A DNA stretch of 58,342 nucleotides from a phage: the sequence record PZ445426.1; one strand, given 5' to 3'. The notes beneath the pieces were generated by a model. The model was not told the DNA's origin. It saw only the letters and a program-made list of their open reading frames with translations, and made no database searches. A program made the translations under genes and the position numbers. This document shows positions 1,572 through 56,816 of the stretch, in pieces; position 1 is the first letter of the stretch; each line of letters begins with the position of its first letter.

Positions 1572-3068
1572 ATGGGTATTGATGCAACTCACCCGCTATA
1601 TGACAAGTGGAAGGACGCATGGGTTAAGTGCAACGACTGCTATGAGGGTGAAGATAAAATTAAGGAAGAAGGTGTTAAATATCTACCACCTTTAGCTTCC
1701 ATGCTTATTGATGGGATGAATAATCCTAATGATCTGGGCTTTCAACGTTGGCTCGCTTATCGTCTGCGTGCTAACTTCCCTGACGATTATTCAAGTGCTG
1801 TTACAAACAATTTAGGTCTGCTGCACCAGAAGCCGCCTACAATCCAGCTTCCTCCTGAAATGGAGTACATGCGGGAGCTGTGTACTGCGGACGGTGAAGA
1901 CATTATTGCTCTGCTACGTCGCATCAACGAAATGCAGTTAAAAAATGGACGTTTGGGCCTGCTGCTGGACTTGCCAAAAGGTGAGGATGTAAATAACAGA
2001 CCGTATATTAGCGTTTATGATGCTTTATCCATTATCAACTGGGATGATGGTAAAGATGAACTAGGTAATATCAACTTGAACATGGTTGTACTGGATGAAA
2101 GCGGTCCTGTACGTGTTAATCAGTTTGACTGGAAAGAAGAGAAGCGTTATCGGGTTCTGCAATTAGGTCCGATGGACACAGATGAAGTTGCAGGTGGTGC
2201 GGTTTACTCCCAGCATCTATTTATCAACAATACCAATTATGATGAAGGGCAAATGATTGCTCCTTATTATAAAGGTAATACGCTGGACGAAATACCTTTC
2301 CAGTTTGTTAATACAACAGATATTACACCAGCACCGGAAGCGCCTCCATTGTTGGGGCTAGCTAACATCTGCTTAAGCATGTACCGAAGTGACGCTGATT
2401 ACCGTCAAAGTCTGCATATGCAGGGTCAGGACACGTTAGTTGTTGTTGGTGGCTCGGGTGAGAATGGAGATAAAGCCCCTCAGCGCATCGGTCCTGGAGC
2501 GGTCATTAACGTTGCTCTTGGGGGTGACGCTAAATATGTAGGCGTTAGCGGCGATGGTTTGTCCGAGCAACGCCTTGCATTGGCAGCGGATAAGCAGGAA
2601 GCTCAGATTAAAGCTGGGCAGATGGTAAACAACACCAAGAGCACGCAGGAATCAGGCGAAGCTATGAAAACGCGTATTGCTGCGCGTACCGCTAGCCTGA
2701 TTCGAATTGCGTATACTGGTGCGGCAGGTTTGGAAAACTTGCTGAAGGTCTGCGCTAAATGGATGGGTGCTGATCCAGAGAAAGTTGTGGTTAAGCCTAA
2801 TCTTGAATTTACCAAGAGCATGTTTAACGGTCAGGACTTTGTTCAAATTATTACTGCACGCAACCTTAAGGCTCCGATCAGCTTGCAGTCTATTCATGGC
2901 TGGCTTGTTGATCAGGGCTTAACCACACTAAGCTTTGAAGAAGAAATGGCAATTCTTGAAGAGGAGCTTAAGAAGTGGCCTCTGCCTGATGATGCTAAAG
3001 CTGATTTAAACGCAGAGCAGCAAGTAAACAAAGATCCTAAGGAAGACGACGCTTCCGATAAAGAATAG
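1572..3068 (+). CDS. putative portal protein
   Basis: 498-aa ORF directly after terL; GGAGGG RBS; call by size and position. Confidence 0.55.
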   Translation: MGIDATHPLYDKWKDAWVKCNDCYEGEDKIKEEGVKYLPPLASMLIDGMNNPNDLGFQRWLAYRLRANFPDDYSSAVTNNLGLLHQKPPTIQLPPEMEYMRELCTADGEDIIALLRRINEMQLKNGRLGLLLDLPKGEDVNNRPYISVYDALSIINWDDGKDELGNINLNMVVLDESGPVRVNQFDWKEEKRYRVLQLGPMDTDEVAGGAVYSQHLFINNTNYDEGQMIAPYYKGNTLDEIPFQFVNTTDITPAPEAPPLLGLANICLSMYRSDADYRQSLHMQGQDTLVVVGGSGENGDKAPQRIGPGAVINVALGGDAKYVGVSGDGLSEQRLALAADKQEAQIKAGQMVNNTKSTQESGEAMKTRIAARTASLIRIAYTGAAGLENLLKVCAKWMGADPEKVVVKPNLEFTKSMFNGQDFVQIITARNLKAPISLQSIHGWLVDQGLTTLSFEEEMAILEEELKKWPLPDDAKADLNAEQQVNKDPKEDDASDKE

Positions 3069-3098
3069 TTGCAACTTGCAAGTTGATCGGTTTATATT
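3069..3098 (+). promoter_or_regulatory. candidate sigma70-like promoter (TTGCAA-18-TATATT) overlapping a perfect 14-bp palindrome CAACTTGCAAGTTG (3072..3085)
   Basis: hexamers and palindrome read directly; lies between portal stop and next gene. Confidence 0.3.
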
Positions 3099-3163
3099 AA
3101 CGAACACGGGGCTGGGACGGCTCAGCTCCAAAAACGTCACACGGGTGACAACGGAGATAAGAA

Positions 3164-4036
3164 ATGAAAAAGAGTTCTGTAGCTATCAGTATTGGTCTTG
3201 CTCTAATTAATCCACGCGCTCGCGGTGAAGGTGATGTGGAATTGCAATACGAGTATGCATCTGCGGAAGAAATCCCGGCAGAATTTGCAACTCTTTACGC
3301 AGAGCAGGGCGGTAAATACGTTCTTGCAAAAGTCAAAGGTGTAGCACCTGCTGATAGCGTTCGTCGTCTGGAAAGTGCGTTAGCAAAAGAGCGTAACGAT
3401 CATCGTCAGGTGAAACAACAAATTAGCGCACTGGGACGTCCAGTTGAAGAAGTCCTGGCGGATTTGGATCGTATCCCTGAGCTGGAAGCTGCTGCTAACG
3501 GTAAAGGTAATCCGGAAGACATTGAGAAGATGGTCAAAGCCCGTCTTGCTCCGCTTGAGCGCCAATTGCAAACTGTTATCACCGAGCGTGACACGGTTAA
3601 GCAGGAAATTGAAGGCTACCGCACTCGCGAAACTAAAGCGAAGATTAAAGATGCAGTTATTGCCGCTGCATCCGGTGCTAAGCTGCGTCCGTCTGCTATT
3701 GAAGATGCGGTGACTTATGCACAGTTGCAAATGACAGTCGACGAGAACGGCAATGTGGTTACGAAAGATGGGGCTGGTGTAACTCCTTACCTGACTCCGG
3801 CGGATTGGCTGAACGAAATCCTTCCGAAACGTCCGCACTGGGTTGAAGGTTCTGCTGGTGGCGGTGCATCTGGTCCTGGCGCTGGCGGTCATCACGGTGA
3901 AGACCCGTACAGTCACGACGGTTGGAACATCTCTAAGCAGATGAATCTCTGGAAAACTAATCAATCTTTAGCTAAACGCTTAGCTGAAAAGAATGGCGTA
4001 GACCCGCTGAAGCCTGTACGTCCTGCTAAGAAATAA
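3164..4036 (+). CDS. putative scaffolding protein
   Basis: 290 aa; charged, coiled-coil-like middle and Gly-rich C-terminus; between portal and capsid genes; GGAG RBS. Confidence 0.4.
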   Translation: MKKSSVAISIGLALINPRARGEGDVELQYEYASAEEIPAEFATLYAEQGGKYVLAKVKGVAPADSVRRLESALAKERNDHRQVKQQISALGRPVEEVLADLDRIPELEAAANGKGNPEDIEKMVKARLAPLERQLQTVITERDTVKQEIEGYRTRETKAKIKDAVIAAASGAKLRPSAIEDAVTYAQLQMTVDENGNVVTKDGAGVTPYLTPADWLNEILPKRPHWVEGSAGGGASGPGAGGHHGEDPYSHDGWNISKQMNLWKTNQSLAKRLAEKNGVDPLKPVRPAKK

Positions 4037-52983: not shown

Positions 52984-53201
52984 AAATATTCATAATACTA
53001 GGCGTTATACTTGCCTTTGTTGTATTTGCAATCGTAGACTCCAAAGAAATGGAGCAGCAAAACTGTCAACGTACTGGTAACAGCCGGGAATATATTGTTT
53101 GGAACAATATTTACGATGCAAAAGGTAATTTTATGTCAATGTACCCACAGTTTATTACTGAGTATGAATATAAATGTGATGACTATAACAGGTGGAGATA
53201 A
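52980..53201 (+). CDS. small membrane-anchored protein
   Basis: 73 aa; N-terminal hydrophobic helix MKIFIILGVILAFVVFAIV. Confidence 0.4.
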   Translation: MKIFIILGVILAFVVFAIVDSKEMEQQNCQRTGNSREYIVWNNIYDAKGNFMSMYPQFITEYEYKCDDYNRWR

Positions 53202-53203
53202 TA

Positions 53204-53746
53204 ATGAGCTGTCAAAAATGTAACGGAACGGGAATGGTTGATAGTGGTGGAGTTCAACCGTGGGGTGAGCCTATTCTGGTGGAGTGCGATTGTTTATATC
53301 GTGAGCGTGATGCTTGGGAGCTGGATCGAGCTGGAGGTTATTACTCCCGTCATGTTATGGCAATGACATCCGAAGGTTTGCACAGCAAAGGTGATATTGC
53401 TGCGGAACTGGGTTATCGTGATATGCGGATTGACCAGTTAGAAGCTGAATGGCGTGCTCAGGAAGAACGTGCAGAAAATGCTGAGACGGATCTTGTCGAC
53501 ATGCGTGCTGCTGAGCACGCTCTATCCGATTCTTATATTCGTTTGCGTCAAATTGTTGGTGCAATGAATCCGCCTGGTGTGAGCAGCGAAGAGGTGTGGG
53601 CGCATACCGAGAAGAAGGCTCAAGAGTTGCGTGATCGCTGCGAAGCTCTGGAAGCTATAGCAAAGGACTTCCTGCGTCGTAATAAATATGGTCCTTTGTT
53701 CTATCGTGATTTGTATAACCGTTTTAAGGAGGTTATTGGTGATTGA
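53204..53746 (+). CDS. zinc-finger (CxxCxGxG) coiled-coil protein
   Basis: ATG 53204 (track start 53192 is GTG); N-terminal CQKCNGTG...ECDC. Confidence 0.45.
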   Translation: MSCQKCNGTGMVDSGGVQPWGEPILVECDCLYRERDAWELDRAGGYYSRHVMAMTSEGLHSKGDIAAELGYRDMRIDQLEAEWRAQEERAENAETDLVDMRAAEHALSDSYIRLRQIVGAMNPPGVSSEEVWAHTEKKAQELRDRCEALEAIAKDFLRRNKYGPLFYRDLYNRFKEVIGD

Positions 53747-53809: not shown

Positions 53810-54202
53810 ATGCTATTAGTCGTCACCGGAGGTCGAGATTTTAAGCATGTGGAGTATATTTACTCTCAATTGGATAAGCTGCATATGCAAAGAAGGATAA
53901 CCACACTTCGCCACGGTGACGCTGACGGTGTTGACCGGATTTGCGCACATTGGGCAGAGCGCAACGGTATTAAGACAGAAGCGTTCCCTGCCCCGTGGGA
54001 CAATCTTTCCTTACCAAATACCAAGATACGGTATAACGCCAAAGGTGCTTATAATGCACAAGCTGGCTCTTACCGCAATCAATTAATGCTGGATACCGAT
54101 CCTAAACCAGATCACGCTATTGTGTTTCCTGGCGGAGCTGGTACTATGGATATGTACAGACGGATTAAAGCATCCGGTATTCCTTACACTTTAGCGGAGT
54201 AA
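53810..54202 (+). CDS. LOG/SLOG-like Rossmann-fold protein
   Basis: 130 aa; VVTGGRDF and FPGGAGT match the GGxG / PGGxGT signatures of LOG/DprA-type nucleotide-binding proteins. Confidence 0.4.
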   Translation: MLLVVTGGRDFKHVEYIYSQLDKLHMQRRITTLRHGDADGVDRICAHWAERNGIKTEAFPAPWDNLSLPNTKIRYNAKGAYNAQAGSYRNQLMLDTDPKPDHAIVFPGGAGTMDMYRRIKASGIPYTLAE

Positions 54203-54677: not shown

Positions 54678-54884
54678 ATGGAAACTCCATTGGCTAAACA
54701 AATGATAGAGCGTGCTGATCGGGACGGTTTGCCTGAAGACCATGCTATGCGTCGAACTGCACAAGCGTTTGACGAAATTAGCGTTAATTACGCTATGGGA
54801 AAGAGCACGCCTAAAGGCTTACTGGGCGCATGGGCTCGCGCTCGTCGCTGCTGGTGCAACTACACCGGAGAACCGCTTGTATGA
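54678..54884 (+). CDS. hypothetical protein
   Basis: 68-aa ORF; stop overlaps next start. Confidence 0.4.
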   Translation: METPLAKQMIERADRDGLPEDHAMRRTAQAFDEISVNYAMGKSTPKGLLGAWARARRCWCNYTGEPLV

Positions 54885-55303
54885 TTAAACATGTCAAGCA
54901 ACCAACGTTGAATACATGCGTTTCTGCGTGTTTGGCAATGATCCTTAATAAACCTGTTGAGAAGGTGATTGAGGAATTTCATAGTCGTTATTATAACAAC
55001 TGGGAAATCACTATCAGCGAATATTTGACTAAAAACGGCGTCCAGCATCATTGTTCAGAAGGTGGTGGGCGCGAAACTTTGCATATGGGAGGTTTGTTCC
55101 TGTGCACGGTGCCAAGTCTTAATATTCCGGGCGCATTGCACCAGATTGTGATTGATATGACAGATCACAAGTTTATTGTGCATGATCCAATTAAAGGATG
55201 GGAAGGTAAAAAGTTCTATGTTGGTCCGGATCAAGATCCTGAAGAGCCTGGAGCTTTCATCATTCATACTTGGGTCAAAGACGTTGAAATCCTGCCTTAT
55301 TAA
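54881..55303 (+). CDS. C39-like papain-fold cysteine peptidase
   Basis: ATG 54881 (ATGA overlap); KQPTLNTCVSACLAMIL matches the C39 Q-x5-C-x2-ACLAMI active-site signature; later IVHDP supplies a candidate His/Asp. Confidence 0.55.
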   Translation: MIKHVKQPTLNTCVSACLAMILNKPVEKVIEEFHSRYYNNWEITISEYLTKNGVQHHCSEGGGRETLHMGGLFLCTVPSLNIPGALHQIVIDMTDHKFIVHDPIKGWEGKKFYVGPDQDPEEPGAFIIHTWVKDVEILPY

Positions 55304-55364: not shown

Positions 55365-55550
55365 ATGACCAAACTATACGCCGGATTGTTTTTATTTGCG
55401 ACGTTAATGTTCGCTGGGCTTTATACCTATACAGTAGTCGAACAACCTTCCACGGTTATCCGAATCTTTGCAAGTACAGGGCTTTGTATCTGTCTTATTC
55501 TATTTGTTTTATGCATTGTTATTATCCAAGACCAAAGGAAAATTAAATGA
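55365..55550 (+). CDS. small two-helix membrane protein
   Basis: ATG 55365 with AGAGGGG RBS; two hydrophobic segments. Confidence 0.4.
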   Translation: MTKLYAGLFLFATLMFAGLYTYTVVEQPSTVIRIFASTGLCICLILFVLCIVIIQDQRKIK

Positions 55551-56008
55551 CCACAATTGCGTTTGATGGGAAAGTATTAGCTGCGGACCGTGGAGTTATG
55601 CGCGGGGAAGTTGTGACTGCTTATAAGAAAGTTCATAGCGTAAATGGACATCGTGGACGGTTTTTACTGGGCTTGTGCGGCCTTACAGCATTTACCGATC
55701 AGGTGTTGCGTTATTTTAATAGCGCGGAACCTGTTAAGTTCCCTGATATTAAGCTTTACAGCAAAGATGATTACGGGCAAACTTGCGGTCTTGCGGTTAC
55801 TCCGGAAGGTACTTGCCATTTTATTTATAATGATGGTACTTTGAGCGAACCCATGCTGGACGGATGGGGATCTGAGGGTAGCGGTTGTGTGTTTGCTGCT
55901 GGCGCGTTAGCTGCTGGTGCAAGTGCGAGCGAAGCTATTGAGTTAGCAATTAAACACACCACATGCGCATTCCTGGGAGTTGATACAATATCATTTGAGG
56001 GTTTTTAA
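55547..56008 (+). CDS. HslV-like / proteasome beta-type Ntn-hydrolase protease
   Basis: N-terminus MTTIAFDGKVLAADRG (Thr directly after Met), KKV, and GSEGSGCVFAAGALAAGASASEAIELAI resembling the HslV GSGG...AL...A.DIAE.A region. Confidence 0.55.
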   Translation: MTTIAFDGKVLAADRGVMRGEVVTAYKKVHSVNGHRGRFLLGLCGLTAFTDQVLRYFNSAEPVKFPDIKLYSKDDYGQTCGLAVTPEGTCHFIYNDGTLSEPMLDGWGSEGSGCVFAAGALAAGASASEAIELAIKHTTCAFLGVDTISFEGF

Positions 56009-56269
56009 ATGACTACATTCAGTCATCTGATCCCACCTGCTTATCATAGTAAGGTAGTTGACCACGGGACTCATGTTGTAATTGGTGGCGAAATCTTTAT
56101 CACAGATAACGAGGAAATCGCCATTGCAATTATTGACAGCACTCAGCATGACTTTATGGTTATCCTGCAACACGAACCCGATAACTTCACTTTTTACTCC
56201 AGCTACGGGGTCGATAAAGGTGGAAAAGATCTTGTTAGCTGGTACATTAGCGAGTGGTTTGACGGGTAA
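56009..56269 (+). CDS. hypothetical protein with HslV-like N-terminus
   Basis: 86 aa; starts MTT and has GTHVVIGGE like the HslV N-terminal strand; too short for a full fold. Confidence 0.35.
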   Translation: MTTFSHLIPPAYHSKVVDHGTHVVIGGEIFITDNEEIAIAIIDSTQHDFMVILQHEPDNFTFYSSYGVDKGGKDLVSWYISEWFDG

Positions 56270-56351
56270 TCTCCTTAGATCAATTCTCCTTGCGCCGTAT
56301 CAAGTTTCTCTGTTACCCTTGAGTGGTTCATGTCAAGCGGAGGAACTCGAT

Positions 56352-56789
56352 ATGGCACTTCAACCTCGTGGTATTCGTAATAACAATCCAGGCAATATTC
56401 GCTGGGGTGACAATTGGCAGGGCTTAGTTCCTGCTGATAAGCGGACCGATAAATCTTTTGCTCAATTCACGCAACCGATTTACGGCATTCGTGCACTAGC
56501 GAAAATCCTGACAAACTACACCAAACGTGAAGGCCTGCCAAATGTGGGTAAGAAAAACATCGACACTGTACGTGAAATTATCGCTCGCTGGGCACCGCCT
56601 AACGAAAACGATACGGAAGCGTATATTCGCTCTGTTGCCAAAGCAATTGGTGTTCAACCCAACGATCCAATTAATGTCTTTGACAAGGCAATTATGTCAG
56701 GATTGGTGAAAGCAATCATTCGTCATGAAAATGGCATGATGCCCTATACCGACGACGTAATTAACCGCGCTATTGCAATGGTACTTTAA
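56352..56789 (+). CDS. putative endolysin (by position only)
   Basis: ATG 56352 with GGAGG RBS inside ORF 56082..56789; GIRNNNPGNIRWGD motif; immediately upstream of holin/spanins but separated by a terminator. Confidence 0.35.
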   Translation: MALQPRGIRNNNPGNIRWGDNWQGLVPADKRTDKSFAQFTQPIYGIRALAKILTNYTKREGLPNVGKKNIDTVREIIARWAPPNENDTEAYIRSVAKAIGVQPNDPINVFDKAIMSGLVKAIIRHENGMMPYTDDVINRAIAMVL

Positions 56790-56794
56790 CTGAC

Positions 56795-56816
56795 GGGGCG
56801 TTAGCCCCTTTTATTT
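56795..56816 (+). terminator. intrinsic terminator (GGGGC-gtta-GCCCC + TTTTATTT)
   Basis: read directly between 56789 and the holin start. Confidence 0.5.

Follow-up and report, generated by a model that had tools for sequence, protein, structure and literature searches.

Results

A PPH-family peptidase homolog upstream of the lysis genes

ORF1, a reading frame of 153 codons in a phage DNA of 58,342 nucleotides (PZ445426.1; "the window" below means this whole stretch as analysed), encodes a genuine homolog of the proteasome-beta/HslV superfamily of Ntn hydrolases, with a likeness well beyond chance. We put a probability of roughly 0.75 on the reading that ORF1 is a late-expressed threonine peptidase of the PPH family, activated by loss of Met1, probably homo-oligomeric and unfoldase-free, and that the adjoining ORF2 is an unrelated, lineage-specific protein. 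The initial annotation had proposed an HslV-like protease lacking an HslU partner, followed by a truncated paralog; the Ntn peptidase homolog in a genome without HslU stood, and the truncated paralog did not. The features discussed are collected in Table 1.

Table 1. Features around ORF1 and ORF2 in the window, and residues of the ORF1 active site (conservation among 144 family members)
Feature	Coordinates	Strand	Basis or remark
ORF1, PPH-family proteasome/HslV-like Ntn threonine peptidase homolog, 153 aa	55547..56008	+	homology, model, catalytic residues
ORF1 Thr2 (Met = 1), equivalent to HslV Thr1	codon 55550-55552	+	95% Thr, remainder Ser
ORF1 Asp14, equivalent to HslV Asp17	codon 55586-55588	+	100% conserved
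ORF1 Lys28, equivalent to HslV Lys33	codon 55628-55630	+	99% conserved
ORF1 Gly45, equivalent to HslV Gly48 (oxyanion-region Gly)			99% conserved
ORF1 Gly111-Ser112-Gly113, equivalent to HslV Gly123-Ser124-Gly125	55877-55885	+	100/83/100% conserved
ORF2, phrog_23528, 86 aa	56009..56269	+	start adjoins ORF1 stop; unrelated to ORF1
phrog_4049 protein, 140 aa (157 aa from ATG 54830)	54881..55303 (probable start 54881)	+	QPTLNTCVSACLAM motif
61-aa hydrophobic (membrane-type) protein, phrog_22841	55365..55550	+	stop overlaps ORF1 start (ATGA)
AGGA Shine-Dalgarno-like motif	55536..55539	+	7 nt 5' of ORF1 ATG
Endolysin, phrog_873	56352..56789	+	downstream of ORF2, apparent transcription unit common to ORF1
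Terminator-like GC stem-loop, then T-run	56795..56808	+	directly 3' of endolysin

ORF1 begins MTTIAFDGK and contains GSEGSGCVFAAGALAAGASASEAIELAI; its HslV-like segment contains GWGSEGSGCVFAAGALAAGASASEAIELAIKH. Gene calls for ORF1 and ORF2 are identical in the records of Seurat, CAjan and Hafnia phage yong3. Among PHROGs, ORF1 matched phrog_1040 ('peptidase HslV family') with E = 3.3e-32. As a single sequence it reached only E = 0.02 and 15 bits against Pfam Proteasome, under the 22.4-bit cut-off; no HslV model and nothing else relevant was matched in NCBIfam, and the PDB yielded nothing significant. Only a family profile, built from 19 ORF1 homologs, succeeded against the PDB, matching HslV (4hnz, 3.8e-12), BPH (5ovu, 3.9e-8), H. 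influenzae HslV (9.1e-8) and many 20S beta subunits. The AlphaFold2 monomer model of ORF1 (pLDDT 93.6, pTM 0.88) retrieved HslV, BPH and 20S beta structures from the PDB with Foldseek at probability 1.0, BPH giving the best TM-score (0.71-0.72). By DSSP, the model forms one helix (47-58) and then a loop (59-78) over the region that holds helices H1 and H2 in HslV. The initial description of ORF1 as an HslV-like protein of 153 residues starting MTT was thus borne out: it had named a missing HslV or proteasome match together with a missing Ntn sandwich as the outcome that would overturn it, and what was obtained was significant profile matches and a confident model resembling HslV, BPH and 20S beta.

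The predicted active site

Active-site conservation was read from an alignment in which E. coli HslV (from the MG1655 genome) was set against 144 family members. In this alignment the complete catalytic set is conserved, namely the Thr1 nucleophile, Asp17, Lys33, the oxyanion-region Gly and Gly-Ser-Gly (HslV numbering; Table 1). Thr1, Lys33 and Gly-Ser-Gly, the positions at which a comparison with HslV had been called for, are all present in ORF1 and conserved in the 144 relatives. A start with Met-Thr or Met-Ser was found in >95% of 162 compiled family members (150 best representatives plus the first-round homologs; median length 148 aa), indicating that the family has no propeptide. E. coli methionine aminopeptidase cleaves Met preceding Thr. 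Host methionine aminopeptidase would then strip Met1 from ORF1, as it does for E. coli HslV, and free Thr1 as the N-terminal nucleophile. With these residues in place, PPH may cleave peptide bonds by the classical proteasomal Thr1/Lys33/Asp17 mechanism.

Assignment to the PPH family

Fuchs et al. (2021) describe PPH as a family of ~140 residues found in Caudovirales and prophage regions, placed in group I, which radiates from BPH and HslV, and represented by WP_042125023.1; helix H2 is given there as missing only in PPH and RPC, of which RPC has a C-terminal extension. In ORF1 the proteasome-like Ntn fold is accompanied by Thr/Ser1, Asp17, Lys33 and the oxyanion Gly; at 153 residues the protein carries neither a propeptide nor an insertion nor a C-terminal domain, and it is predicted to lack H2, according to DSSP on its model and to family gaps opposite HslV 63-74. 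It comes from a Seuratvirus-like genome and has relatives in 208 viral contigs, in keeping with a tailed-phage or prophage origin. Since ORF1 has no C-terminal extension, RPC is ruled out. By the published description, ORF1 belongs to the PPH family.

The family is large, with 11,908 cluster representatives (50% identity) at E ≤ 1e-3 and 8,065 at E ≤ 1e-10. Proteasome-like folds are also common in BFVD (38 entries at E ≤ 1e-3), and ORF1 itself was found in 58 phage records by tblastn. The feature is already known: the family is published and the ortholog is annotated. Its labels are 'peptidase HslV family' in CAjan RefSeq, Seurat RefSeq and KS_A3, 'putative protease' in the GenBank entry for CAjan, 'ATP-dependent protease' for yong3 and 'proteasome subunit alpha type-2' for ECP2304. 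In PQ202980.1 (Escherichia phage CSP1C, locus L001 2500-5900) the product names seem to be shifted by one gene: the ORF2 homolog bears 'ATP-dependent protease subunit HslV', a holin-sized gene bears 'endolysin' and the 61-aa membrane protein bears 'cysteine protease'. Besides Fuchs et al. (2021), the literature searched contained no functional study of PPH or of HslV-like proteins from phages, and neither enzymatic nor genetic results for a PPH member; papers on Seuratvirus comparative genomics and on BASEL make no mention of a protease.

Search for an unfoldase

At the level of sequence comparison, no AAA+ unfoldase gene was detected in the ORF1 genome or near PPH in other phages, and the initial remark that the window holds no HslU-like gene was confirmed. 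The annotation of the collinear relative KS_A3 lists none, and when ten ORFs of the window, chosen as large or as ATPase candidates, were scanned with Pfam, the matches were confined to a Sak4-type AAA_24 recombination ATPase, an SF2 helicase and a primase. Four E. coli queries (HslU, ClpX, Lon and ClpP) compared by phmmer with six-frame translations gave nothing at E ≤ 0.01, either in the window or in 80 viral PPH loci (0.85 Mb in total, ±6 kb around PPH). No partner gene family was conserved across these 80 loci, in which the neighbours were varied packaging/head/neck genes or unknowns; the ORF picker used for this survey recovered the PPH gene in 56 of the 80.

An unfoldase might be borrowed from the host, as had been suggested initially. 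PPH would then dock on HslU (or ClpX), an AAA+ unfoldase of the host, and the resulting hybrid would be an ATP-dependent protease by which host proteolysis is redirected. The E. coli host carries hslVU, so HslU would be available, and the catalytic core of ORF1 is HslV-like; moreover, the discussion of Fuchs et al. (2021) makes PPH exclusive to proteobacteria, though Table 1 of that paper also marks other phyla. The docking site itself argues against such an arrangement. ORF1 lacks helix H2 in its model. HslV forms the pocket for the HslU C-tail from Phe54, Phe57, Gln114 and Ala79/Lys80 (PMC6429459); opposite Phe54, Phe57, Gln114 and Lys80, ORF1 has Asp, Leu, Pro and Asp. Across the family the pocket positions are variable except position 57, which stays hydrophobic; position 79 is Pro in 94% of members, and the position of HslV Lys28 is deleted in the alignment. 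BPH, likewise a descendant of HslV and likewise without a partner unfoldase, became HslU-independent (PMC5777263). With H2 missing and the published pocket residues not conserved, we consider the use of a host unfoldase very unlikely.

The basic pore residues of HslV (Arg86, Arg89 and Lys90; PMC5777263) aligned mostly with Asp or Glu in the PPH family, in a region where the alignment is uncertain. These positions (window 55740-55780, ORF1 residues ~65-78) recall the acidic pore loop of BPH, subject to the same alignment uncertainty.

PPH would probably be a homo-oligomer acting without an ATP-dependent unfoldase, as has been proposed for BPH. BPH, the characterised homolog closest in structure, bound epoxomicin, yet no peptidase activity was seen in standard assays (PMC5777263); an intact active site is therefore no guarantee of general protease activity.

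ORF2 is a lineage-restricted small protein

ORF2 is present as first described, beginning MTTFSHL and containing GTHVVIGGE. The proposal that it is a truncated paralog would make ORF1 and ORF2 a catalytic plus degenerate regulatory Ntn pair, like alpha/beta subunits. ORF2 does start MTT in the window's phage, the two genes abut (TAAATG, the ORF1 stop directly followed by the ORF2 ATG), and their adjacency is retained in Hafnia phage yong3. Comparison of the two proteins gave no sign of kinship, however (BLASTP E = 3.6; hhalign profile-profile probability 0.7%), and the candidate paralogy was rejected. The residue after Met varies among ORF2 homologs (T, A or S), 86 aa are too short for an Ntn fold, and searches of Pfam, NCBIfam, PADLOC and, with a profile, the PDB returned no match. 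Homologs are confined to Seuratvirus-like phages, in 31 phage records (versus 58 for ORF1), and within the 80 viral PPH loci the ORF2 family occurs only in the Seuratvirus-like ones. A paralogous pair is on this evidence scarcely credible, although ORF2 could still be a binding partner of non-homologous origin.

ORF2 is instead a lineage-restricted small protein. That it is a real gene follows from its persistence as a separate ORF at 41% identity in yong3; metagenomic homologs are 67-98% identical. Its AlphaFold model is poor (pLDDT 57). In KS_A3-type records ORF2 is omitted and a 213-aa 'endolysin' is called from inside it (window 56082-56789; PP627278.1, locus L087, 1640-2281), whereas the Seurat, CAjan and yong3 records retain ORF2 together with an endolysin of ~145 aa, and the PHROG endolysin match spans the short form only. 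The 213-aa call is probably an annotation artefact. In yong3 (OM868075.1, L088) a 146-aa gene at 2850-3290, between the ORF2 homolog and the holin, is labelled 'capsid protein'; this label at the endolysin position is probably a mis-annotation.

Late-gene context in Queuovirinae

The 2.4 kb around ORF1 and ORF2 are 92-98% identical to 33 sequenced phages of the genus Seuratvirus (subfamily Queuovirinae), among them Escherichia phages Greed, KS_A3, KurtStettler, CAjan and Seurat, and the gene order of the whole window is collinear with KS_A3 (58,418 bp). The first gene of the window is terL and the last an open terS frame, so that it represents essentially one complete, permuted phage genome. 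Locally, genes for a SLOG/YAcAr protein, a 146-aa unknown, the C39-like protein, the 61-aa membrane protein, PPH, ORF2 and the endolysin follow one another, continued by the terminator, holin, spanins, terS and terL. All the way from the 61-aa membrane protein to terL, PPH and the late genes around it point in one direction and lie close together. The Seurat depositors annotated a ribosome-binding site at the place equivalent to the AGGA motif of ORF1, and the Seurat record has a terminator at the same position as the stem-loop of Table 1, the first terminator-like site 3' of ORF1.

This arrangement bears on a possible part for PPH in the Queuovirinae lysis programme, for example in processing a lysis regulator or membrane protein, or in cleaving cell-wall peptides after the holin opens the membrane. 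PPH and endolysin share an apparent transcription unit with a terminator only after the endolysin, the PPH start codon overlaps the stop codon of the 61-aa membrane protein gene, and the position upstream of the lysis cassette recurs in Vid5 and yong3. Outside Queuovirinae, by contrast, no identified lysis gene was seen beside PPH, in surroundings where many neighbours are unannotated, and no signal sequence is apparent in ORF1. We know of no precedent for proteasome-family enzymes acting on peptidoglycan, which also counts against this role. A lysis function is accordingly highly improbable.

The phrog_4049 protein (window 54830-55303), with its QPTLNTCVSACLAMIL motif, may be a second, cysteine-type peptidase in the cluster. 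Its match to Pfam Peptidase_C39 is weak (E = 0.07) and a PDB search gave no match, so the C39-like assignment is only a lead. A homolog is encoded near PPH in Pantoea phage Vid5 (locus L077, 5172-5639), where PPH again lies upstream of the lysis cassette and adjoins C39-like and SLOG genes, in a different order. Window 53810-54202 encodes a SLOG-superfamily YAcAr/YspA-like protein (PF10686, E = 1.2e-17), and its Vid5 homolog (L077 5636-6004) lies immediately 5' of PPH with a 4-nt overlap. Further upstream, window 53192-53746 encodes a 184-aa protein with an N-terminal CQKCNGTG resembling the DnaJ-type CxxCxGxG zinc finger.

It is conceivable, though unlikely, that PPH, the C39-like peptidase, the 61-aa membrane protein and ORF2 of Queuovirinae constitute a dedicated late, unfoldase-free 'two-protease' module. 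Equally speculative is the target of such a module, which would be a specific host or phage protein (e.g. a defence protein or a lysis regulator) cut just before lysis and packaging. If true, the module would give a viral proteasome homolog a biological role for the first time.

PPH genes in other phages

In distant phages the PPH gene occupies varied slots among late genes: between terL and a P22-type portal gene; between Ad1 and Neck1; after a T7-type portal gene and a small ORF and before scaffold-like and major capsid genes; between portal and MuF genes; and next to terS or terL. Among 46 non-redundant loci, a labelled packaging/head/neck gene was the immediate neighbour of PPH in 13 and lay within five genes in 27, an apparent enrichment of modest size. 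Flanking genes were on the same strand in 69/91 cases. In one lineage (IMG/VR contigs L008, L009, L023 and L071), PPH lies between the T7-type portal and the scaffold-like/major capsid genes.

The slot between portal and scaffold/major capsid genes is the usual place of prohead proteases. The presence of PPH inside the packaging/head module of many phages (T7-type portal to major capsid, terL-PPH-P22-type portal, Ad1-PPH-Neck1) could mean that it is a virion-morphogenesis enzyme, processing prohead or scaffold proteins, or a protein packaged in the virion. Against this, PPH changes its slot from lineage to lineage, a pattern more in keeping with a mobile accessory gene than with a morphogenetic component of fixed position; its apparent enrichment near structural genes is small, and in the window's phage ORF1 precedes lysis genes. 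PPH is also absent from the virion proteins identified by LC-MS/MS that the main text of the Vid5 paper gives (PMC6266253). We hold a morphogenetic or virion role to be quite improbable. The varied slots, together with the lack of a conserved partner family, speak more for a mobile accessory gene with late expression than for a fixed part of morphogenesis, and PPH would then be made late in infection as an accessory enzyme.

Discussion

As a discovery the finding adds nothing new; PPH is nevertheless abundant, with >8,000 representatives after clustering at 50% identity. Growth on E. coli K-12 would make Seuratvirus phages (CAjan, BASEL members) a convenient system for learning the role of PPH, as a minimal proteasome homolog without an unfoldase, during infection.

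HslV (ClpQ) is the best sequence-profile match of PPH in the PDB, and the two share the Ntn fold; the Thr that follows Met aligns between them, as do Asp17, Lys33 and Gly-Ser-Gly. ORF1 is nevertheless not a canonical HslV. It has the catalytic Thr1, Lys33 and Ser124 of Gly-Ser-Gly, but it is ~25 residues shorter, scores below curated family thresholds (Pfam Proteasome 15 versus 22.4 bits; no HslV match in NCBIfam), has no gene for an HslU AAA+ unfoldase partner in its genome, and shows neither the H1-H2 pair nor the pocket for the HslU C-tail. Whereas HslV has the H1-H2 helix pair, PPH is predicted from the model to lack H2, and the HslV segments ~63-74 and 133-141 correspond to gaps in most of the family. 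HslV assembles as a dodecamer of two hexameric rings.

The 20S beta subunits have the same fold and catalytic triad as PPH and gave many significant profile and fold matches; unlike them, PPH has no propeptide, alpha-ring partner, H2 or C-terminal S12/H5 elements. BPH is the closest in structure (best TM-score, see above) and, like PPH, has no partner unfoldase; both tentatively carry acidic rather than basic residues in the pore-facing region. BPH differs in being bacterial and chromosomal where PPH comes from phage, and in its ~190 aa, its retained H2, its elongated acidic pore loop and its tetradecameric assembly; ORF1, with 153 aa, has no such insertion.

PPH is a minimal proteasome-beta/HslV Ntn fold of ~150 residues without H2, propeptide or C-terminal extension. 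In the lineage of ORF1 the gene precedes the lysis cassette and has those of a C39-like peptidase and a SLOG protein as neighbours, a setting that the accessible text of Fuchs et al. (2021) does not mention. As far as that text describes PPH, no difference from ORF1 was detected: the two agree in their length of ~140-155 aa, in having no propeptide, C-terminal extension or H2, in Thr1, Asp17, Lys33 and Gly, in their Caudovirales origin, and in standing nearest to BPH and HslV.
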